From: Escherichia phage vB_EcoM_ESCO47
Length of the DNA: 64,000 nt
Sequence record: OM386662.1
Reading direction: 5' to 3' (one strand)
Shown here: one piece after another, positions 2,992 through 63,397 of the stretch
How the letters are laid out: each line of letters begins with the position of its first letter
Position numbering within the stretch: the stretch's first letter is position 1
Position numbers and translations under genes: made by a program
Notes under the pieces: generated by a model
Seen by the model: only the letters and a program-made list of their open reading frames with translations
Database searches by the model: none
Told to the model about the DNA's origin: nothing

Positions 2992-3099
2992 ATGAAACTT
3001 TTGCTTATTGTATATGTTGTGATACAATACAACTATCCGATGTTCACATTCAATATGGTGAACAATATAATAAATCTTATTGAGAAGAGCATACAATGA
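2992..3099 (+). CDS. Small hydrophobic ORF (35 aa)
   Basis: ATG 7 nt after AGGAG; below ORF-track cutoff; ATGA overlap with next gene. Confidence 0.3.
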   Translation: MKLLLIVYVVIQYNYPMFTFNMVNNIINLIEKSIQ

Positions 3100-5712: not shown

Positions 5713-6714
5713 ATGAGTAAATTGGAGAATAAAATGTTCAACGTTCAAATCAAAAAAGGTATCTATCGTAATAACGAAATCTCTGGTTCTTATGTCGCCA
5801 CAAAGACCTGGTTCCCGGCAAAGCTTAATCCTGAGTGTTCTCACCTCGGTGATGGTAAAGTTTTCATTATGATTGATGGTTCTGAACGTGGAGTATGGGT
5901 CTTTAAATCAGATATCGTTATGGAAGGAGTTGAGACCTCTCCAGTTACAGTTGTTGAAAGCAACGAAGACATGAAAACTCGTATCAATAAACGCTTTAAA
6001 GTAATGAATATGATGACGAATGGCATTATCAATGGCAAAATTCGTTCACTCATTATTTCAGGTGCAGCTGGTATTGGTAAAACGTATTCTCTGGATAAAG
6101 CACTTAATAACGCTAATGATAATGGTTTCATCAAATACAAAAGCATTAATGGTAAAATCTCTGGTATTGGCCTTTACGAACAACTTTGGCTCAACCGTGA
6201 TGCAGACAGCGTTCTCTTAATCGACGACGTTGATGTATTCTCAGATATGGACATCTTGAACCTTCTTAAAGCAGCATTAGATACTGGTGATAAACGCAAA
6301 GTTTGTTGGAGCACTGCGTCATCTTATCTCGATGATAAGGGTATTGATAAAGAATTTGAGTTTGAAGGTACTATCGTTTTCATTACAAACGTTGATATCG
6401 ATAAAGAGTTAGAACGCGGTTCGAAACTTGCTCCACACCTTCAGGCTTTAGTATCTCGTTCAGTGTATCTTGACCTTGGAGTACACTCTAATGAAGAGAT
6501 TATGGTTCGAGTTGAAGATGTAATATTATCTACTGACATGATGCAGAAACGTGGTCTGACTGATGCAGAAACGTATAAAGCATTATCTTGGATGAAGGCT
6601 AACGTATCTCGTCTTCGCAATGTATCATTACGTACGGCTCTTTATGTAGCAGATTTTATTTCAACTGATAAAGATGGTTGGGAGGAAATCTCTGAAGTAA
6701 CTTTACTGAAATAA
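5713..6714 (+). CDS. P-loop ATPase (AAA-like)
   Basis: Walker A GAAGIGKT and Walker-B-like LLIDDVD. Confidence 0.55.
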   Translation: MSKLENKMFNVQIKKGIYRNNEISGSYVATKTWFPAKLNPECSHLGDGKVFIMIDGSERGVWVFKSDIVMEGVETSPVTVVESNEDMKTRINKRFKVMNMMTNGIINGKIRSLIISGAAGIGKTYSLDKALNNANDNGFIKYKSINGKISGIGLYEQLWLNRDADSVLLIDDVDVFSDMDILNLLKAALDTGDKRKVCWSTASSYLDDKGIDKEFEFEGTIVFITNVDIDKELERGSKLAPHLQALVSRSVYLDLGVHSNEEIMVRVEDVILSTDMMQKRGLTDAETYKALSWMKANVSRLRNVSLRTALYVADFISTDKDGWEEISEVTLLK

Positions 6715-11623: not shown

Positions 11624-11803
11624 ATGAAAACTGAATTATTTTATGGCGAAAGAAAAAATGGACAAAAATCCTGGAAATTTGTTATGACTGGGGCTCCAAA
11701 CAATCCGACTATGGCTACTTCAATTATTTCAGTAACACGTCCTACTAAGAAAATGATTCGTCAATATAAACGTTTTCATCGAGACTTTTATAACGTTTAC
11801 TAA
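11624..11803 (+). CDS. Small ORF (59 aa)
   Basis: Just below ORF-track cutoff; fills gap before gene 49. Confidence 0.3.
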   Translation: MKTELFYGERKNGQKSWKFVMTGAPNNPTMATSIISVTRPTKKMIRQYKRFHRDFYNVY

Positions 11804-20841: not shown

Positions 20842-22526
20842 AATCATTTAAATTAAATCGTGTTCGTTATAAAAATATAATGTCTGTTGGGCAAAATTTT
20901 ATCGATATCCAATTAGATAAAGTCCAAAAGACCTTAATCACAGGTAAAAATGGTGGTGGTAAATCTACGATGTTAGAAGCCATCACTTTTGGACTTTTCG
21001 GCAAACCATTTCGTGATGTTAAGAAAGGACAAATCATTAATAGCACGAACAAGAAAGAGCTCTTAGTTGAGCTTTGGATGGAATTCGATGATAAAAAATA
21101 CTTCATCAAACGAGGTCAAAAGCCCAATATTTTCGAAATCTCCGTTGACGGTGTTCGTCTCGATGAATCTGCCAGCAGTCGTGACTTCCAAGAAGAATTT
21201 GAACGTAGCATCGGAATGTCCTATGCGTCTTTTAAACAAATCGTCGTTCTTGGTACAGCAGGGTATACCCCTTTCATGGCTCTTAGCACCCCAGCTCGTA
21301 GAAAACTTGTCGAAGACCTTTTAGAAGTCGGCACACTCGCTGAAATGGATAAAATCAATAAGTCTCAAGTTCGCGAACTTAATTCCCGGGGGCAAGTTCT
21401 CGATGCCAAGAAAGATGGTGTTATCCAACAAATTAAGATTTATAATGAGAATATCGAACGTCAAAAGAAATTATCCGGTGATAATGTAGCTCGTCTACAG
21501 AATATGTATGATGACCTGGCTAAAGAAGCTCGGTCATTAAAAGCAGAAATCGAAGAAGCTAATGAGCGACTACTTAATATCGTTCTTGACGAAGACCCTA
21601 CTGAGGCATTCAACAAGATAGGACAAGAAGCATTATTGATTAAATCTAAAATTGACTCATATAACAAAGTTATTAAGATGTATCATGACGGCGGTACATG
21701 TCCTACTTGTGCATCACAGTTGCACCAGGGTGATCCTATTGTCTCTAAGATTACCGATAAGCTTCATGAATGTAATCACTCATTCGAGCAACTTACCTGT
21801 CACAGAGATAATCTGAGTGTCCTAGTGGACGAATATAGAGCTAATGTTAAGACTAAACAGGACCTTGCATCTGATATTCGTACCAAGAAACAAGCAATGA
21901 TTGCCACTATTGATAAAGCTAAGAAAGTTAAAGCTGCAATAGAGCAAGCCTCAGCAGAATTTATCGACCATGCCGATGAGATAGCTTTGCTTCAAAAAGA
22001 ACTTGATAAAATCATTAAAACAAAATCGGATATCGTTCTTGAAAAATACCATCGTGGTATTATCACAGATATGTTAAAAGATTCTGGTATTAAAGGTGCT
22101 ATCATTAAAAAATATGTGCCTCTGTTCAACAAGCAGATTAACCATTACCTTAAAATCATGGAAGCTGATTACGTGTTTTCTATTGATGAAGAATTCAATG
22201 AATCTATAAAATCCCGTGGTCGTGAAGATTTTAGTTATGCTTCATTTAGCCAAGGTGAAAAAGCACGTATTGATATCGCTTTATTGTTCACATGGCGAGA
22301 TATTGCTGAAAAGGTTTCTGGTGTTAGAATCAATACATTAATTATGGACGAAGTCATGGATTCCGCGACTGATTCTGAAGGTATTAAAGCTATTTCAACA
22401 ATTCTTAACTCTCTAACCGATGCAAACGTGTTTATAATTAGTCACAGAGACCATGACCCACAAGCTTATGGACAACATCTTCAAATGAGCAAAGTTGGAC
22501 GATTTACTGTAATGAAAGCCTCTTAA
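20838..22526 (+). CDS. 46: Recombination ATPase gp46 (Rad50/SbcC-like)
   Basis: 562 aa; Walker A GKNGGGKST, CPTC zinc hook, C-terminal LIMDEV Walker B. Confidence 0.9.
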   Translation: MKSFKLNRVRYKNIMSVGQNFIDIQLDKVQKTLITGKNGGGKSTMLEAITFGLFGKPFRDVKKGQIINSTNKKELLVELWMEFDDKKYFIKRGQKPNIFEISVDGVRLDESASSRDFQEEFERSIGMSYASFKQIVVLGTAGYTPFMALSTPARRKLVEDLLEVGTLAEMDKINKSQVRELNSRGQVLDAKKDGVIQQIKIYNENIERQKKLSGDNVARLQNMYDDLAKEARSLKAEIEEANERLLNIVLDEDPTEAFNKIGQEALLIKSKIDSYNKVIKMYHDGGTCPTCASQLHQGDPIVSKITDKLHECNHSFEQLTCHRDNLSVLVDEYRANVKTKQDLASDIRTKKQAMIATIDKAKKVKAAIEQASAEFIDHADEIALLQKELDKIIKTKSDIVLEKYHRGIITDMLKDSGIKGAIIKKYVPLFNKQINHYLKIMEADYVFSIDEEFNESIKSRGREDFSYASFSQGEKARIDIALLFTWRDIAEKVSGVRINTLIMDEVMDSATDSEGIKAISTILNSLTDANVFIISHRDHDPQAYGQHLQMSKVGRFTVMKAS

Positions 22527-23239
22527 TGAGGCTTATGTTTACAGTTATCAAAATGCCAACGATGCATATTAGCAGGGATCCCTATTTTATCGCAATGAGG
22601 ACATTTAATTTTCTTGTCCTCTTTTTTCTTTCTGTTAGGATTTGATTTACAGAATTTTATATGCGGCTTTAACGCCGATAACTTAGTAGTTAAGCCACAA
22701 AACGGGCAAGAATCTTCTTTCCAAATTTTCGTGGCCATGGTTTTAATTATTTTATCCTTTGTTTCTTGATCAAGTTTTACTATTTTAGGCGTAGGGCCTT
22801 GTTTACAGTTATCAAAATGCCAACGTCTCATGTTTCCTTCAGTGCCAGTTAAACCGCAGTGTGGACATGTAATCTTTGGTTTATTTTTTGCAGACTCGGA
22901 CATTTTCTTACGAGTTTCAGCAGTGAATTCTTTGTTCTTTTGAACTTCTTGATTCTTACGTCGAAGCCATCCAAATAATTTGTTTTTGCTTCTATCTGCT
23001 TTAGGAGATGAGATAGTCATCATACGAGCAGCATATATTAAAGAGGCATTATCTGGATGGATTTTTACTAGCAGTTGATGTGCCAAATAATGTTCTTCTG
23101 GTGTTAAATCTACTAAGTTTAAAGCATCATCACTTCCACCTAAACATTGTGGTATAATGTAATGACGTTCTGTATAACCATCTAAACTTCTTGATTTAGC
23201 ATTGGTGATAAGCTTTTCGTATATTGAGTTATAATTCAT
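22523..23239 (-). CDS. Free-standing HNH homing endonuclease with three C-terminal zinc-finger-like repeats
   Basis: HYIIPQCLGGSDDALNLVDLTPEEHYLAHQL HNH motif; three CP(H/F)CG...H(F/I)...CK repeats; only sizeable minus-strand gene in the block. Confidence 0.65.
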   Translation of the reverse strand: MNYNSIYEKLITNAKSRSLDGYTERHYIIPQCLGGSDDALNLVDLTPEEHYLAHQLLVKIHPDNASLIYAARMMTISSPKADRSKNKLFGWLRRKNQEVQKNKEFTAETRKKMSESAKNKPKITCPHCGLTGTEGNMRRWHFDNCKQGPTPKIVKLDQETKDKIIKTMATKIWKEDSCPFCGLTTKLSALKPHIKFCKSNPNRKKKEDKKIKCPHCDKIGIPANMHRWHFDNCKHKPH

Positions 23240-29475: not shown

Positions 29476-30108
29476 ATGAAAACCACTCCTATTACTATCG
29501 CAATTGACGCAATCGTAAAGCAAGCTTCATCTCTGGCTACTATGGCTAAAGTAATTAGTCAAAATTCAGCTCGATACAATGCCATTCTTGAAACCTTGCG
29601 ACGTCCTGGTCTGAGTAATTATGAAAGTCGTGTAATTATTACCGGTGTCGGTAAAAATGCTAATATCGCAACTAAAGCTTCTGAAACATTTGCTTCACTC
29701 GGTATCCCGAGTATGTACTTGAACACTGGGCATTATTCTCACGGTGATGCAGGATTCATTGCGCCTAATGATGTGTTGATTCATATTAGTCGTTCTGGTA
29801 AAACTGAAGAAATGATTGGCGTGGCTAAGCATCTTAAAATGATTCGTCCGAACGTCAAACAGATTCTGTTGCATTGTAACCCGGACATTCCACAAGAAAA
29901 TGAAGCCCTTTTTGATTACTCTTTCTGTACAGGCATCGCAGTAGAGGTTGATGAGAATTCTCTGGCTCCGACTATGTCAACTACATTGTTGTTAGCGCTT
30001 ATCGATACGTTTGCTATCAACCTTTCATCTGAACGTGGATTTACCTCTAATGACTTCCTTAAGTTCCACCCTGGTGGTGCACTAGGTGCCATGTTACGAG
30101 GCGAATAA
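29476..30108 (+). CDS. SIS-domain sugar-phosphate isomerase, KdsD/GutQ-like (putative arabinose-5-phosphate isomerase)
   Basis: VIITGVGKNANIATKASETFASLG...HGDAGFI...ISRSGKTEE...LAPT.STT...HPGGALG parallels the KdsD SIS domain; no CBS domains. Confidence 0.65.
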   Translation: MKTTPITIAIDAIVKQASSLATMAKVISQNSARYNAILETLRRPGLSNYESRVIITGVGKNANIATKASETFASLGIPSMYLNTGHYSHGDAGFIAPNDVLIHISRSGKTEEMIGVAKHLKMIRPNVKQILLHCNPDIPQENEALFDYSFCTGIAVEVDENSLAPTMSTTLLLALIDTFAINLSSERGFTSNDFLKFHPGGALGAMLRGE

Positions 30109-30251
30109 TGAAAGCAATAGCAATAGGACTTTTACTATTGATGCTTGTTATGACTATCTACTGGAGCTTAACTGCTCCAGTAATGGTTCCGACTCTTATA
30201 ATCGGATGGATTATGATTGGACTACAAGCAAAGTATGAATGCTTTAACTAG
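30108..30251 (+). CDS. Small membrane ORF (47 aa)
   Basis: TAATG coupling to SIS gene; two hydrophobic segments; below ORF-track cutoff. Confidence 0.3.
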   Translation: MKAIAIGLLLLMLVMTIYWSLTAPVMVPTLIIGWIMIGLQAKYECFN

Positions 30252-44789: not shown

Positions 44790-45130
44790 TGTTTAAGTGG
44801 TTTAAAGAATTGTTTGCTTCCACCCCAGGACAAGGAATGGTTCCTATTGATACCCATGCACCTAAAAAAGAGTATATCTACGCGGGTGATGGTATGATGG
44901 AAGAAGTGGTTTGTCCGGCTGAAAAAGCAGATAATGTTGGACAGGTGGCATCTAGTTTAAACGCGTCAGAGTTAAAGTCTCAATTAGAAAAATTAAAAGA
45001 AGAACGTTCTCAAAGGCAAACATACATAGACGCTGCGGCAATAACGACAGTAGCTTCTGTAAGCTCATGGTCTGGGGATTCCTGTTCAAGTTCTTCTGAT
45101 TGTAGTTCAAGCTCTGGGAGCTGCGACTAA
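44789..45130 (+). CDS. Hypothetical protein with Ser/Cys-rich low-complexity C-terminus
   Basis: C-terminal SVSSWSGDSCSSSSDCSSSSGSCD. Confidence 0.4.
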   Translation: MFKWFKELFASTPGQGMVPIDTHAPKKEYIYAGDGMMEEVVCPAEKADNVGQVASSLNASELKSQLEKLKEERSQRQTYIDAAAITTVASVSSWSGDSCSSSSDCSSSSGSCD

Positions 45131-45309
45131 TGAATAAAATTGTCAAGTGGTTTAAAAGTTGGAACGATGGTATTGAGCATAAAGACTGGCTTGATGTTCT
45201 TGATGAGAATTTATCTAAAGAGATTCAAGAACACGAAAAGAAGCAAGTTGAAGCCGAAGGTATCCGTCTTGTGAAACTTTATATGGGCGAACCTAGGAGA
45301 ACATTATGA
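45130..45309 (+). CDS. Small ORF (59 aa)
   Basis: TAATG coupling; N-terminus [11 protein letters not shown] resembles MFKWFKELF of upstream ORF. Confidence 0.3.
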
Positions 45310-45455
45310 CGTGTACCAAAGAAGCTGAAGCCAGAGCAAAGGAAGCTTTAGATTTGCTTCTCAAAATCGGTAGTAAAATGATGGAAGAGAACGAAAAATA
45401 CATCCAAGAAAATAAAACTCCGGATGGTCCATTAGTTGGTAAGAGGAAATCATAA
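45306..45455 (+). CDS. Small ORF (49 aa)
   Basis: ATGA coupling on both sides. Confidence 0.3.
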
Positions 45456-45853: not shown

Positions 45854-46332
45854 TGGCTAAAATACTCGAATTAGAATTTTATATTCGTGATAACCGTGGC
45901 CAAACTCGTCCTTATGATGACACAGTTTGCGTTATCTTAGTACCATCTGACACTAGTAACAGTTCATCTGAAAGCCTCGAAAAGGCTATTAATAGTATGG
46001 CTCTTCCTGAAAACGTTATGCTTAAAATAAAGCATAATAAAAATGTTGAGATGCAACCAGGTAGCCCATTTACAGTAGTAGAAGCATTGCTGATTAAAGG
46101 TTATAGTTATCCTAACAACAGATCAGAAGGCGAGAACTCTAAAGAAATTTTCTTTACAACTCCTGATAAAGACTGTCTCGAAGGACGAAGCTATCTTGTA
46201 GGAAGCACTTCTGACGTACTCGAAATCCAACGTCAGATCTGGACGCATTTTGATATCGGACTTCGCTTTACGTTAACAGAGTCAGCCCTTCTAGAACAAT
46301 CTCTTCGTCGACGCATGTACGGTGGTTTCTAA
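45850..46332 (+). CDS. Hypothetical protein
   Basis: 160-aa ORF. Confidence 0.4.
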   Translation: MMAKILELEFYIRDNRGQTRPYDDTVCVILVPSDTSNSSSESLEKAINSMALPENVMLKIKHNKNVEMQPGSPFTVVEALLIKGYSYPNNRSEGENSKEIFFTTPDKDCLEGRSYLVGSTSDVLEIQRQIWTHFDIGLRFTLTESALLEQSLRRRMYGGF

Positions 46333-46511
46333 TGGATTTAATGAGCATGTTTGATGAGCCTGAAGTTGAGGCTCCTAAAGCACAACGTGGAGAACTCGTT
46401 GACGAACTGGACATTATTATACAGCGTCACGGGTTTAATCTTCCTATAGAAGTCCTGAAAGACCTAGCGTCTTACTACGATGATCCACCTCCTTGGGCCC
46501 CTTGGTCATAA
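46332..46511 (+). CDS. Small acidic ORF (59 aa)
   Basis: TAATG coupling; below ORF-track cutoff. Confidence 0.3.
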   Translation: MDLMSMFDEPEVEAPKAQRGELVDELDIIIQRHGFNLPIEVLKDLASYYDDPPPWAPWS

Positions 46512-46596
46512 CAGTTATCCCTCCTTAACGACGTGGTATCCAACTATCACGTCGCCTCTTAGAGTATACATCACTCACAATTTAGCCGAATTTTTA

Positions 46597-46626
46597 GTGT
46601 ACATCCTTAAAGAACAGTGTTACTAT
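46597..46626 (+). promoter_or_regulatory. T4-type early promoter
   Basis: GTGTAC, 18-nt spacer, TACTAT, TCTCCTATCAA box. Confidence 0.5.
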
Positions 46627-46654
46627 TCTCCTATCAACTTCAGGAGAAATCAAA

Positions 46655-47266
46655 ATGTTTTTACCTTATAATGAATGTGAAATTGAAGAAATGGTTCGCC
46701 GAGCACAAGACCCTGTGTTCCAAGAAGACCTGCAATACAAAATTGATGAAGTGTTCAGTGATTCTGAGCAGAGCACTCTTTGGCAGTGCATGGAAAATAA
46801 ACCGGATTGCATTCAACAAGAGTTGGATTCAATCATTCGTAAAAATTGGTCATCTTCTGTGCCAACGGTCCTTTATCGTGGAATTTCTAAGAAAACTCTA
46901 AAAATGTTAGATTCTGTAGGATGTGTAGGAGCTACTATCAAGTTTGACCGAGTAATGAGCTTTAGTTCAGTATTTGGTGTAGCACGTAATTTTGCTTCAC
47001 ACAATTTTTATGGAACTAAACAAATATTCTGTGTTAAGAATGCTCCATTCGCTTTTAACTTCAGAGAAACAATGCTTGACATGATTTTGGCTGCGCCATC
47101 TTGCGAGTTCAGCGGAGCTTTCCCTGAAGCGACTAGACGGTCTAATGTTCGTTTAGTATCTGATGAGTGTGAATTTATGTTCCCGATCGGGACTACACTA
47201 CGTGTAGATTCTGTTACTGAAGAAGGAACTTATCGGATATGGAATCTGTCTATTATCGGTTACTGA
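46655..47266 (+). CDS. ADP-ribosyltransferase, ModA/ModB-like
   Basis: 203 aa; LYRG (Arg motif), FSS, and ECEFMF (ExE) in the order expected for R-S-E ADP-ribosyltransferases; mod position. Confidence 0.55.
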   Translation: MFLPYNECEIEEMVRRAQDPVFQEDLQYKIDEVFSDSEQSTLWQCMENKPDCIQQELDSIIRKNWSSSVPTVLYRGISKKTLKMLDSVGCVGATIKFDRVMSFSSVFGVARNFASHNFYGTKQIFCVKNAPFAFNFRETMLDMILAAPSCEFSGAFPEATRRSNVRLVSDECEFMFPIGTTLRVDSVTEEGTYRIWNLSIIGY

Positions 47267-50486: not shown

Positions 50487-50515
50487 GTTTACATCCTCTG
50501 TAGATATGTTATAAT
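50487..50515 (+). promoter_or_regulatory. T4-type early promoter
   Basis: GTTTAC, 17-nt spacer, TATAAT, TCTATCAACTACAGAGG box. Confidence 0.55.
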
Positions 50516-51691: not shown

Positions 51692-51886
51692 ATGAAAACT
51701 TTATTAACTCAAGATCAATTTGAAGATATCCTTTTCGACCCAGAATTAGTTGTTGTTCAAAAAGAAATTACTAGTGGTCTTGAACACCATTCTTACGTAT
51801 ACGTTTATGAAAATGACAAACCAGTTATGGTTGCAGTACGTCACATCACAGGCGAAGGCACAACTTACTGGAAGGAAGCAATCTAA
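51692..51886 (+). CDS. Hypothetical protein
   Basis: 64-aa ORF. Confidence 0.4.
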
Positions 51887-52308
51887 TGGCTATTAAATTT
51901 GAAGTTAACAAATGGTACCAATTTAAAGATAAACGTGCCCAAGAAGAGTTTATTAAAGACCACACTGATAATGGGATTTATGCACGACGTCTTGGCATGG
52001 AACCATTTAAAGTATTAGATGTTGACCATCTTGGTCGTCCTACTAAAATTGTGACATCTACTGGCATGGTTGGATACGCAACAGGCGGTGATATCCTTGA
52101 TGAAAACTTTATCTGGCTCTCCACGAATGAAGCAGAGTTCTTTGTCGAAGTTGGAAATCCATACCAGGCAGCTGAAGAACAAGAACATGAAGAGCAAGAA
52201 CCAATGCCAGAATTGACTGAGTTCCCTTTACTGAAAGTTACTATTGAAAATAATGAACAAGCATGGTCTTTGTATCAAATGTTGAAAGCTCACTTTAAGG
52301 AACAATAA
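51886..52308 (+). CDS. Hypothetical acidic protein
   Basis: 140-aa ORF, TAATG coupling. Confidence 0.45.
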
Positions 52309-52487
52309 TGCCGTTATACGACTATAAATGCCAATCTGAAGATTGTGGTCATGAATATGAAAAAATTAAAAGAATTTCTGAACGAGAAAACGATGTTTGC
52401 CCTGAATGTCATCGTCTGTCTACTCGTCGGGTTTCTGCTCCTAAACATGTGAACGGTGGTTTTTACGACTTACTTAAGAAGGATTGA
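52308..52487 (+). CDS. FmdB-like zinc-ribbon small protein (59 aa)
   Basis: [18 protein letters not shown]...CPECH; below ORF-track cutoff. Confidence 0.4.
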   Translation: MPLYDYKCQSEDCGHEYEKIKRISERENDVCPECHRLSTRRVSAPKHVNGGFYDLLKKD

Positions 52488-52489
52488 TT

Positions 52490-52915
52490 ATGGCTTTTAA
52501 AGGTTTTGAAGTTGGTAAGAAATATCGTATTATCAAAGGACAGGAAGATAATTTCTTGAGAATTCTTAATACGACTGGTAAACGTCTTAATACTAATCTG
52601 CATACTACTTTATTGTCCAAAGATTTTATTGTGGAAGAGATGATTGGTTATGGTGTTTCGATTATTGCTGTAGAAGCTGTAGGCGATTACGGCCGAACTA
52701 TTCATAGTATGCAAGGTGATATTCTGCTTTATGGTGCAGAATTTAAATTCTTTGAAGAAGTTCCGGAACCAGATACAGCTGTCGATTTCAAAAAAGGCTC
52801 TATAGAATTTGTTGATGGTTCGGTGATCGTATCAGGCGATGTGGTCATTACAGTTAAAAGTGAACAAGGGCGTTTGGCTGCAATTGATGCACTTCAGAAA
52901 ATTAAATTTAAATAA
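52490..52915 (+). CDS. Hypothetical protein
   Basis: ORF-track start 52484 is TTG; ATG 52490 more plausible. Confidence 0.45.
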   Translation: MAFKGFEVGKKYRIIKGQEDNFLRILNTTGKRLNTNLHTTLLSKDFIVEEMIGYGVSIIAVEAVGDYGRTIHSMQGDILLYGAEFKFFEEVPEPDTAVDFKKGSIEFVDGSVIVSGDVVITVKSEQGRLAAIDALQKIKFK

Positions 52916-52932
52916 GGGCTTCGGCCCTTTTT
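52915..52932 (+). terminator. Rho-independent terminator with TTCG tetraloop
   Basis: AGGGC-TTCG-GCCCT then TTTTT. Confidence 0.55.
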
Positions 52933-52956
52933 GCTTTAGATTTCGGATGATAGAAT
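52932..52956 (+). promoter_or_regulatory. MotA-box middle promoter upstream of gene 39
   Basis: TGCTTTA then 19 nt to TAGAAT; GGATGATAGAAT shared with the gene 47 promoter. Confidence 0.45.
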
Positions 52957-60293: not shown

Positions 60294-60557
60294 ATGAAAT
60301 TTAAATTTTTCTACGCAAAACATAAAGTGACCGGTGAGTTTGTTTCAATGTACAACACCGCAGATGACGAAGGGATGATTTATACCCATTTGGGTCTATC
60401 TCATTGGGATTCAGACGTGCCTTATATGTCATCTGAAGCCGAAATAACTCGTCTGGTTAATGGACATATGAACGACCATTTTGGTGTTATTCTTTCTAAA
60501 GACCTTAAAGAGGTTATCAACAAAGGATATATGGAACTCGCGGAAGTTGAGATATGA
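60294..60557 (+). CDS. Hypothetical protein
   Basis: 87-aa ORF. Confidence 0.4.
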   Translation: MKFKFFYAKHKVTGEFVSMYNTADDEGMIYTHLGLSHWDSDVPYMSSEAEITRLVNGHMNDHFGVILSKDLKEVINKGYMELAEVEI

Positions 60558-60749
60558 GCTCTAAAATGTGGATAGGAATATGGTTGCTTAGTATCCCAAT
60601 GATTTGTATAATATTTTCAATTGCATTGAGGTACTTATGAAAAATGCACTTCTTATTGTACTAAGAACAATTTGTGATACGGGTTTTTACATTGCATGTT
60701 CGTTCACTGGAACATGGTTGGCTTTAACATATTTTAATGTAATTTAATT

Positions 60750-61534: not shown

Positions 61535-61576
61535 TCCGGTAATAAAACGGCGTCTTAGGACGCCACTGGGGAAATT

Positions 61577-61741
61577 ATGCAACCGATTTTAACTTTTATC
61601 TGGTTAGTGACTGTTATTGTGTTGGTAACCCTTTTTGCAGCAGGTGTATGGGTTCCAGGTCCTTTTGTTGTTGGATTTATTTGTGTGTGGTTCATACTAG
61701 ACGCAATCGTTAAATTTTTAGTAACGGTATTTAACCGATGA
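61577..61741 (+). CDS. Small membrane ORF (54 aa) in the T4 ac position
   Basis: Hydrophobic; + strand alternative to the antisense ORF 61555..61749. Confidence 0.3.
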   Translation: MQPILTFIWLVTVIVLVTLFAAGVWVPGPFVVGFICVWFILDAIVKFLVTVFNR

Positions 61742-61882
61742 TTAAACAAATCTTTGGCTACTCGATAGCCCTTGCTGCTTTATTAGTGGCATTATATTAT
61801 GGTGTTATGTTCGGGCTAATCCAAGTCGTGCTTTTCATTTCTGATGTTATTATGGCACTACATTCACTAGTATGGTAAATTT

Positions 61883-63208
61883 ATGCAACTGAATAATCGT
61901 GATTTAAAAAGTATTATTGATAATGAAGCACTAGCGTATGCAATGTATACGGTTGAAAACCGTGCAATCCCAAACATGATTGATGGGTTTAAACCGGTTC
62001 AACGATTTGTTATTCATCGTGCATTGGACTTGGCTCGTGGAAACAAAGAAAAATTCCATAAACTGGCTTCAATCGCTGGTGGTGTAGCTGATCTCGGTTA
62101 TCACCACGGTGAATCTTCAGCACAAGATGCCGGTGCTCTGATGGCTAACACATGGAATAACAACTATCCATTATTAGATGGACAAGGCAACTTTGGTTCA
62201 CGAACGGTTCAAAAGGCTGCAGCATCTCGTTATATTTTTGCTCGTATCAGTAAAAATTTCTATAACGTCTATAAAGATTCTGAGTATGCTCCAGAACATG
62301 AAGATAAAGAACACGTTCCACCAAAATTCTATCTTCCAATTATCCCGACGGTTCTATTGAACGGTGTTTCTGGTATCGCAACCGGGTATGCAACAAGCAT
62401 TCTGCCTCATAGTTTTAAATCTGTTAAGAAGGCTGTATTACAAGCTCTTCAAGGTAAAAATATCACTAAGCCTAAAGTTGAATTCCCAGAGTTTCGCGGC
62501 GAAGTGCATGAAGTTGAAGACCGATATGAAATTCACGGCACATATAAATTCACATCTCGGACTCAAATGCAAATCACCGAGATTCCATATAAATTTGATC
62601 GTGAAACGTATGTGAGTAAAGTTCTCGACCCGTTAGAAGATAAAGGGTTGATTACATGGGAAGATGACTGCGGTGAACATGGTTTCGGATTTAAGGTGAA
62701 GTTCCGTAAAGAGTATTCGCTTCCGGACGATGAAGCTCTTCGTCATGAGAAAATCATGAAAGACTTTAGTCTTATTGAACGTCGTTCCCAGAACATTACT
62801 GTTATCAATGAAAAAGGCAAGTTGGCTGTATATGATAACGTTGTTGATTTGATTAAAGATTTTGTTGAAGTCCGTAAGACTTACGTTCAAAAACGTATTG
62901 ACAACAAAATCGTTGAATCAGAAAAAGCTTTTAAACTAGCTTTTGCCAAGGCGCATTTTATCAAGAAAGTTATTGCCGGTGAAATCGTGATTCAAGGCAA
63001 GACTCGTAAAGCTTTGACCGAAGAGTTATCACAAGTGGAAATGTATAAAGAACATGTAGACAAGTTAGTAGGTCTTAACATCTTCCATATCACATCAGAT
63101 GAAGCACGTAAACTAGCAGAAGAAGCTAAAGCTAAGAAAGAAGAAAATGAGTACTGGAAATCTACAGATGTCGTAGCAGAGTACACTAAAGACCTGGAGT
63201 CTCTATGA
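61883..63208 (+). CDS. 52: Topoisomerase II medium subunit gp52 (GyrA-like)
   Basis: 441 aa; N-terminus MQLNNRDLKSIIDNEALAYAMYTVENRAIPNMIDGFKPVQR matches my recollection of T4 gp52. Confidence 0.85.
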   Translation: MQLNNRDLKSIIDNEALAYAMYTVENRAIPNMIDGFKPVQRFVIHRALDLARGNKEKFHKLASIAGGVADLGYHHGESSAQDAGALMANTWNNNYPLLDGQGNFGSRTVQKAAASRYIFARISKNFYNVYKDSEYAPEHEDKEHVPPKFYLPIIPTVLLNGVSGIATGYATSILPHSFKSVKKAVLQALQGKNITKPKVEFPEFRGEVHEVEDRYEIHGTYKFTSRTQMQITEIPYKFDRETYVSKVLDPLEDKGLITWEDDCGEHGFGFKVKFRKEYSLPDDEALRHEKIMKDFSLIERRSQNITVINEKGKLAVYDNVVDLIKDFVEVRKTYVQKRIDNKIVESEKAFKLAFAKAHFIKKVIAGEIVIQGKTRKALTEELSQVEMYKEHVDKLVGLNIFHITSDEARKLAEEAKAKKEENEYWKSTDVVAEYTKDLESL

Positions 63209-63288
63209 GCTTCACAGGCCTAGCCCTCGGGTTCTTGGTCACAGTCACATTGTTAGTCATCTTACTTCTATGGTTAGACCGTGAATGA

Positions 63289-63309
63289 GGAGCCTTCGGG
63301 CTCCTTTTT
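63289..63309 (+). terminator. Rho-independent terminator with TTCG tetraloop
   Basis: GGAGCC-TTCG-GGCTCC then TTTTT. Confidence 0.6.
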
Positions 63310-63329
63310 GTGCATTTTTACACAAAACA

Positions 63330-63358
63330 GTTTACATGCGCGTCAAGCATGATATTAT
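63330..63358 (+). promoter_or_regulatory. T4-type early promoter
   Basis: GTTTAC, 17-nt spacer, TATTAT, AGACCTATCAA box. Confidence 0.55.
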
Positions 63359-63397
63359 AGACCTATCAAAACAAAACAACCATTTGGAGAAATAAAA

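Follow-up and report, generated by a model that had tools for sequence, protein, structure and literature searches.

The short open reading frames (ORFs) studied here most probably belong to the small early genes of a T-even phage, and one of them, at 52308-52487, would be coupled to goF and encode a product that modulates GroEL as in T4; we give this reading as a whole a probability of about 85%. The DNA analysed, called the window, is a 64,000-nt stretch of Escherichia phage vB_EcoM_ESCO47 (OM386662.1), and positions refer to it unless another record is named. Judged by its sequence, the 52308 ORF is the orthologue of T4 gene 39.2 (Gp39.2/NwgI). The ORFs listed for the window would be genuine small early genes of an RB69-like T-even phage, arranged closely one after another along the strand that is transcribed early, and it would be because of this packing that many of their starts overlap the previous stop codon.

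The window can be assigned to the early-gene region of an RB69-like (Mosigvirus) T-even phage. A 6-kb stretch around the 52308 ORF had matches in 772 phage records, and the best full-length matches were RB69-type Escherichia/Shigella phages (Mosigvirus) at about 91% DNA identity, with the same picture over the other 50 kb. The gene order on the plus strand is tk ... 49, nrdD, 55, 47/46, 45, 44, 62, regA, 43 and the sugar cassette, followed by uvsX, 41, 61, soc, mrh, mod, srd, dda, dexA, motB and cef, and finally by goF, 39.2, 39, rIIA, rIIB, ndd and 52; the segment dexA-motB-cef-goF-39.2-ORF005c-39 is ordered identically in the window and in RB69/Mosigvirus genomes. Coding is almost wholly on the plus strand, and overlaps of 1 or 4 bases occur at many gene junctions. 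On the minus strand the window contains just two ORFs that reach 100 aa. One, at 5841-6146, sits inside a long plus-strand ORF; the other, of 238 aa at 22523-23239, lies where gene 46 and the 45.2/rpbA genes are 950 nt apart, and its product gave no Pfam family above threshold and a weak zinc-ribbon match only.

The first-pass annotation had listed eight ORFs, all of which are intact at the coordinates given in Table 1, on the plus strand, running from ATG to stop and encoding 35-59 aa. It had also described them as overlapping their neighbours by ATGA or TAATG, which a check of the coordinates bore out for six of them. ORFs 30108, 45130, 46332 and 52308 start by TAATG on the upstream stop codon, the 45306 ORF has ATGA at its start and TAATG at its end with the next gene, and the end of the 2992 ORF overlaps the next gene by ATGA. 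The description does not apply to the 11624 ORF, which is separated from its neighbours by 9- and 39-nt spacers, nor to the 61577 ORF, which has a 42-nt spacer upstream and is ATGA-coupled only to the unlisted 61738 ORF. Similarly, that these ORFs were missed by a 60-aa cutoff is true of the ORF list from which that annotation worked and not of the state of knowledge; most of them already carry annotation in RB69 or ST0.

Table 1. Features of the window discussed in the text.
Feature	Position	Strand	Length (aa)	Remarks
mobD.2 homologue	2992..3099	+	35	68% identical to T4 mobD.2
DUF7279 protein	11624..11803	+	59	basic; directly upstream of gene 49; corresponds to RB69ORF087c
Hydrophobic protein	30108..30251	+	47	TAATG-coupled to SIS-domain (arabinose-5-P isomerase-like) gene
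Acidic/basic helical-type protein	45130..45309	+	59	coupled at both ends; corresponds to RB69ORF024c
modA.4 homologue	45306..45455	+	49	coupled at both ends; 87% identical to T4 modA.4
modA.2 homologue	46332..46511	+	59	TAATG-coupled upstream; invariant C-terminal DPPPWAPW
Sigma-70-type promoter-like site	50488..50515	+		11/12 matches, extended -10 TG; after dexA; consensus scan
goF homologue	51886..52308	+		RB69 goF in syntenic place
SD-like TAAGGA	52296..52301	+		6 nt before 39.2 ATG, within last goF codons
39.2 orthologue	52308..52487	+	59	FmdB-type zinc ribbon (Cx4C...Cx2C) and conserved tail APKHVNGGFYDLLK
Terminator-like hairpin	52914..52939	+		AAGGGCTTCGGCCCTT, then T-run; consensus scan
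Very hydrophobic protein	61577..61741	+	54	between ndd and gene 52, T4 stp/ac position
Ninth coupled ORF, T4 gp52.1 homologue	61738..61878	+	46	hydrophobic membrane protein

A bare open frame is weak evidence in this AT-rich DNA, and the presence of such frames is near chance expectation. Markov-random sequence gave about 1.6 ATG-ORFs of at least 35 aa per kb of plus strand (about 0.29 per kb at 59 aa or more), so that the 17 gap-filling ORFs found in 7.4 kb of gaps are just mildly above expectation, and 57 ORFs reaching 35 aa lie in alternative frames within the window's long genes. On these figures some or all of the listed ORFs could be taken for untranslated chance frames in AT-rich intergenic DNA, the more so as two of the eight overlap no neighbour and the 61577 ORF occurs in few relatives and has a weak Shine-Dalgarno (SD) sequence. 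The start regions argue against this explanation. Among 97 gene ends, five stop codons are overlapped by the ATG of an ORF of 47 aa or more, where 0.67 would be expected. All eight listed ORFs have an SD-like stretch of 4 nt or longer in the 20 nt before the start, compared with 18% of the ATGs in the window; the spacing of this stretch is 6-9 nt in seven of the eight and 16 nt for 61577.

Conservation across relatives, which the first-pass annotation had proposed as a check, argues in the same direction. IMG/VR loci were sampled via the conserved neighbours gp39, gene 49, gp52 and gp43, since selecting for the small ORFs themselves was to be avoided, and each of the eight ORFs proved to have intact homologues of similar length. 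All eight match PHROG families at E <= 7e-19. Pooled pN/pS ranged from 0.21 to 0.55 over the eight ORFs, with synonymous sites near saturation (2992, 0.21; 11624, 0.43; 30108, 0.39; 45130, 0.22; 45306, 0.24; 46332, 0.52; 61577, 0.55), and third-position changes were in excess for every one of them. The usable homologues were all open in the annotated frame, which is partly by construction of the extraction, while the other frames mostly close. Frame-disrupting changes, by which the proposal was to be refuted, are frequent in none of the ORFs; for 39.2 they amount to the T4 reference and two single-record frameshift variants. The chance-frame explanation thus appears largely refuted already, and we regard it as hardly credible. 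That the short ORFs are likely real micro-proteins, as had been proposed, therefore holds up, with conservation and not coupling as the decisive evidence; the weakest cases for gene status are 61577 and 2992, with 4 distinct sequences each.

The 52308 ORF sits between goF and topoisomerase gene 39, with RB69 gp39.2 in the syntenic place. Its product had been described as a zinc ribbon with an FmdB-like start, MPLYDYKC. The start was confirmed, and the product scored above the curated cut-offs of both FmdB profile models, with 49.3 bits for Pfam PF09723 Zn_ribbon_8 (cut-off 34.4, E 5e-13) and 48 bits for the FmdB family zinc ribbon TIGR02605 (cut-off 31.3, E 9e-13). The four cysteines are likewise present, but their spacing in the translation is C8-x4-C13 ... 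C31-x2-C34 and not the reported CxxC...CxxC. The ribbon comprises residues 1-44, and a short conserved tail follows it. By tblastn, T4 39.2 is 73% identical over residues 1-44 (E 1e-20), and the tail of the T4 reference, which lies in the adjacent frame, is 85% identical to that of the 52308 product; for the frame-corrected T4 protein the identity, counted by eye, is about 74%.

Homologues of 39.2 were found by tblastn in 848 phage records. In 34 of 36 gp39-anchored loci the gene is intact, is located no more than about 2.8 kb upstream of gp39 and encodes 57-65 aa with 37-100% protein identity. The MP-x-Y-x-Y-x-C start, the SERD motif and the four cysteines are kept in the homologues; the cysteines were counted in 35 distinct sequences, in which the knuckle spacing varies. 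Comparison with T4-type copies gave pS of 0.70-0.78 and pN of 0.08-0.11. The annotated frame has a pN/pS of 0.20 and is the sole frame open in 19 of 19 close gap-free relatives, four of the five other frames have values of 1.4-1.9, and the remaining one, rc1, has a value of 0.38 but is interrupted by stop codons in all sequences. These results indicate that 39.2 is under strong purifying selection.

Two records depart from the common frame. In Shigella phage vB_SsoM_113 and Salmonella phage Manna, 39.2 switches to the +1 frame after residue 32 (…CPNVIVCLLVGLLLLSM), and we take these variants to be presumed sequencing frameshifts. The T4 RefSeq record (NC_000866.4; about 3600-3842 in L005 numbering, minus strand) has a 39.2 of 45 aa with the tail PKH..GFYDLLKG in the next frame. 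This short version results from a one-base frame difference compared with all relatives. As 58 aa is the length given in the literature, an error in the reference sequence or its annotation is likely.

In the AlphaFold model of 39.2, four beta strands follow the order of a ribbon and the tail is disordered; the mean pLDDT is 63, and values in the tail are below 50. The word-indexed protein search had returned 8 clusters only, which accounts for the shallow alignment and the mediocre model. Foldseek searches of the model against the PDB returned nothing at E <= 0.001, the best matches being zinc-ribbon domains at E >= 0.24, and a search of the PDB with the 39.2 sequence gave only insignificant bL31 matches. 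With a modest model and no significant structure match, the zinc-ribbon fold rests on the HMMs and the cysteine pattern, and the zinc ribbon with metal binding is to be regarded as predicted.

The surroundings of 39.2 suggest how the gene might be expressed. The goF TAA shares one base with the 39.2 ATG (TAATG, 52306-52310), and the pair has the geometry of translational coupling, in that the start overlaps the upstream stop and the SD lies inside the upstream gene; an AAGGA-type motif recurs 5′ of most homologous 39.2 starts. The promoter-like site at 50488..50515 is a candidate for the start of a motB...cef-goF-39.2-ORF005c transcription unit. The terminator-like hairpin at 52914 stands directly after the ORF that follows 39.2 and ahead of gene 39, and the consensus scan found no other plus-strand terminator-like site between the 50488 site and this hairpin, the goF to 39.2 junction included. 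The co-directional block, the SD within goF and the shared base make co-transcription of 39.2 and an at least facilitated re-initiation after goF plausible. The gene would be transcribed together with motB-cef-goF from an early promoter, and it would be translated from its own SD TAAGGA, probably aided by ribosomes terminating on goF.

T4 Gp39.2 is described as a 58-aa peptide and a subtle modulator by which GroEL is moved toward its open conformation, in which GroES and phage co-chaperonins can be bound (Ang & Georgopoulos, Genetics 2012, as related in PMC5153855 and PMC4396842). Genetic and biochemical support for this effect is mentioned there (PMC5153855), and T4 deleted for 39.2 is stated to be blocked on specific groEL mutant hosts and viable on ordinary K-12 (PMC5153855, PMC4396842); the gene is thus dispensable in T4 on ordinary hosts (PMC4396842), and the effect accordingly subtle. 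The 39.2 protein of the present phage quite likely has the same role, since it has about 74% identity to Gp39.2, the same slot and the same motifs. It would bind host GroEL and promote the open state, to which GroES or the phage co-chaperonin gp31 can attach, so that GroEL-dependent folding of phage proteins would be favoured. The major capsid protein is the classic GroEL-dependent phage protein in T4.

Records in RefSeq and phrog_1076 carry regulator labels, from which 39.2 would be an FmdB-like transcriptional regulator, that is a zinc ribbon binding DNA or RNA polymerase/sigma and altering early transcription. Such a role would fit the neighbours motB and goF, which are transcription modifiers, and it would also fit RbpA, a sigma-binding zinc-ribbon protein, and a YdjO-SigA model, both of which are among the best, though non-significant, fold matches. 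However, these fold matches all have E > 0.2 and come from a low-confidence model, no DNA-binding domain was detected in the Pfam search, and the label derives from the name of the family: in the literature we found labels only for an FmdB 'regulatory' function, with no test or experimental support behind them. The sole phenotype reported for the T4 orthologue, moreover, is GroEL-specific (PMC5153855, PMC4396842). We therefore consider a regulator quite improbable.

The wider family bears on a further explanation. A phmmer scan of 1.84 billion representatives returned 255 clusters at E <= 1e-3, mostly of 55-125 aa, and in the 24 clusters that were inspected the phage tail NGGFYD aligns with the bacterial KG-x-GWY-x-x-DY. 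Bacterial members without a known GroEL link thus have the same ribbon and G-G-[FW]-Y tail, and in T4 the gene is dispensable on ordinary hosts (PMC4396842). The 39.2 ribbon might accordingly be a general host-protein adaptor, with GroEL as one of several targets, or Gp39.2 might be a client or competitor of GroEL. We found no other Gp39.2 target in the literature, and the specific shift of the GroEL open/closed equilibrium has the genetic and biochemical support described in PMC5153855, which makes an adaptor or client unlikely compared with a dedicated GroEL modulator.

Because Gp39.2 shares its ribbon and its G-G-[F/W]-Y-x-D tail with bacterial FmdB proteins, it may also be asked whether the FmdB family as a whole consists of GroEL modulators or clients and not of transcription factors, in which case the phage would have captured a modulator of host type; this is a speculative extension to which we give little credence. 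The GGFYDLL tail was considered as a mimic of the GroES mobile loop (GGIVL) and set aside. The same motif occurs in bacterial FmdB proteins, so that the tail is not a phage-specific loop mimic, and it is shortened in one phage clade. The main text of a T4 proteome/transcriptome paper makes no mention of 39.2 or the other small genes.

The 2992 ORF matches phrog_3515 (E 7e-19) and has an AGGAG SD at 6 nt. In RB69 (AY303349.1; 47617-47718 in L144 numbering, minus strand) a mobD.2 homologue 76% identical to it lies between tk.1 and ORF107c, where no CDS is annotated. The product of the 11624 ORF matches Pfam PF23945 (E 1.5e-15), is 98% identical to RB69ORF087c and is present in 355 phage records.

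The 30108 ORF, which matches phrog_3610 (E 1e-26), occurs in 573 phage records. It had been called a small membrane protein inside the sugar cassette, and its hydropathy (GRAVY 1.41) and its place between the SIS-domain isomerase and a nucleotidyltransferase agree with this. ST0 labels the genes flanking its counterpart as arabinose-5-phosphate isomerase and hypothetical protein. The T4 homologue is intact, with 49 aa and 54% identity, and lies in the 42-imm intercistronic region; RB69ORF054c, which corresponds to the 30108 ORF, accordingly carries the note 'similar to T4 42-imm intercistronic region'. A necessary tie of this gene to the arabinose genes was rejected, as in T4 the homologue stands between imm, which it follows, and gene 42. 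Annotation of this family is incomplete: the 49-aa T4 homologue (NC_000866.4; 16227-16376 in L042 numbering, minus strand) is ATGA-coupled to imm and has no RefSeq CDS, RB69 ORF054c (19927-20067 in L144 numbering) is annotated with 36 aa from an internal Met while a 47-aa frame is open, and in many T4-type records no feature lies under the match.

The 45130 ORF was found in 153 records, exclusively from Mosigvirus-type phages, with 63-75% identity. Alignment of profiles with Srh by hhalign gave a probability of 71% (E 4e-5, 47 columns), and the two share the slot upstream of modA.4; tblastn against T4 Srh gave 23% identity (E 0.002 in a small database). The 45130 product is probably a divergent Srh. 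Srh is a postulated sigma-32 decoy in T4. The segment 45130-45455 shows local mosaicism: its modA.4 homologue is close to that of T4 and lacks a clear counterpart in RB69 and ST0, and the 45130 ORF is at most 75% identical in any of the 153 records compared with about 91% for the flanking DNA, and the ORF looks like a fast-evolving Srh-like gene. The adjoining 45306 ORF matches phrog_2681 (E 4e-32), its pN/pS having been obtained from 15 distinct sequences.

The 46332 product is 37% identical to T4 modA.2 and 86% identical to RB69 modA.2, and was found in 31 loci; pS is saturated in the comparison that gave its pN/pS. A 63-aa ATG-ORF at 46480-46671 on the plus strand overlaps its end by 32 nt; its translation is unlike a protein and it is probably spurious, so we did not count it as a coupled neighbour of the 46332 ORF, and 46512-46654 would then be intergenic, upstream of the mod gene.

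The 61577 ORF matches phrog_9347 (E 4e-22) and is present in 4 of 38 gp52-anchored loci at 39-74% identity; most of its DNA occurs in 24 phage records, and it is rarer than the other listed ORFs. A tblastn search of T4 with the protein gave no match. A tblastn of phage records with the protein was likewise empty, presumably because of the low-complexity filter, and the 24 records come from a DNA search. A perfect 6-bp hairpin (GGCGTC-TTAG-GACGCC, 61548-61563) stands between ndd and this ORF and ends 13 nt before the ATG; it might act as a terminator, in RNA processing or in translational control. The 61738 ORF, which overlaps the 61577 stop by ATGA and was absent from the original list, encodes a product near-identical to T4 52.1 that matches Pfam DUF7396 (E 1.6e-22), and its DNA is widespread in T4-type phages.

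Further gap ORFs in the window start at 22526, 22830, 43289, 43459, 60637, 63285 and 63668. Short hydrophobic gap ORFs were noted on the plus strand within 60554-60747 (60554, 28 aa; 60637, 36 aa) and within 63205-63395 (63205, 27 aa, overlapping the end of gene 52), and ORFs 60554, 60637 and 63205 may be further small membrane genes of the ndd.x/motA.1 type.

Taken together, the short-ORF finding is correct but ordinary, and nothing in it is new in kind. Sequence comparison identifies the flagged gene with a T4 gene that already has a name and a published function, and the rest are known T-even ORFs or catalogued families. The value of the finding is mainly one of annotation and curation: ORF-length cut-offs hide a sizeable and real class of T-even early genes, and the public records are inconsistent. 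Gene 39.2 is a documented phage micro-protein tuning a host machine, and the orthologue described here enlarges the family by one without introducing a new principle.

With respect to RB69 and ST0, syntenic homologues exist for seven of the eight listed ORFs, the small genes concerned being gp39.2, ORF087c, ORF054c, ORF024c and modA.2 in RB69 and gp013, gp031, gp065, gp092, gp094 and gp107 in ST0. Identity to both phages is 86-100% for 30108, 46332 and 52308, 76-79% for 2992 and 64-69% for 45130, while the 11624 ORF is 98% identical in RB69 and only 39% in ST0. The modA.4 homologue (45306) is shared with T4, but neither RB69 nor ST0 has a clear counterpart, and the 61577 ORF has no ST0 counterpart up to position 70000. 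In T4, mobD.2, modA.2, modA.4, srh, 52.1 and the imm-42 ORF occupy the same relative positions with 37-87% identity, srh being a weaker, profile-level match; the 30108 ORF follows the sugar isomerase gene here, whereas its T4 homologue follows imm.

The 39.2 protein resembles the FmdB family in its MP-x-Y-x-Y-x-C start, its two cysteine pairs and its NGGFYD tail, which is similar to KG-x-GWY-x-x-DY. It differs from it (TIGR02605, CxxC_CxxC_SSSS) in that the first knuckle is Cx4C and not CxxC, in being phage-encoded without a serine- or low-complexity-rich C-terminal extension, and in that the role of its orthologue, according to PMC5153855 and PMC4396842, is chaperonin-related and not the nominal 'regulatory' one. 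Compared with T4 Gp39.2, it has nearly the same length (59 against 58 aa), the same slot in the order goF -> 39.2 -> ... -> gene 39, and the same MPLYDYKC start, four cysteines and GFYDLLK tail. The two proteins differ in about a quarter of their residues, and the gene downstream is a 141-aa RB69ORF005c-type gene here and 39.1 in T4.
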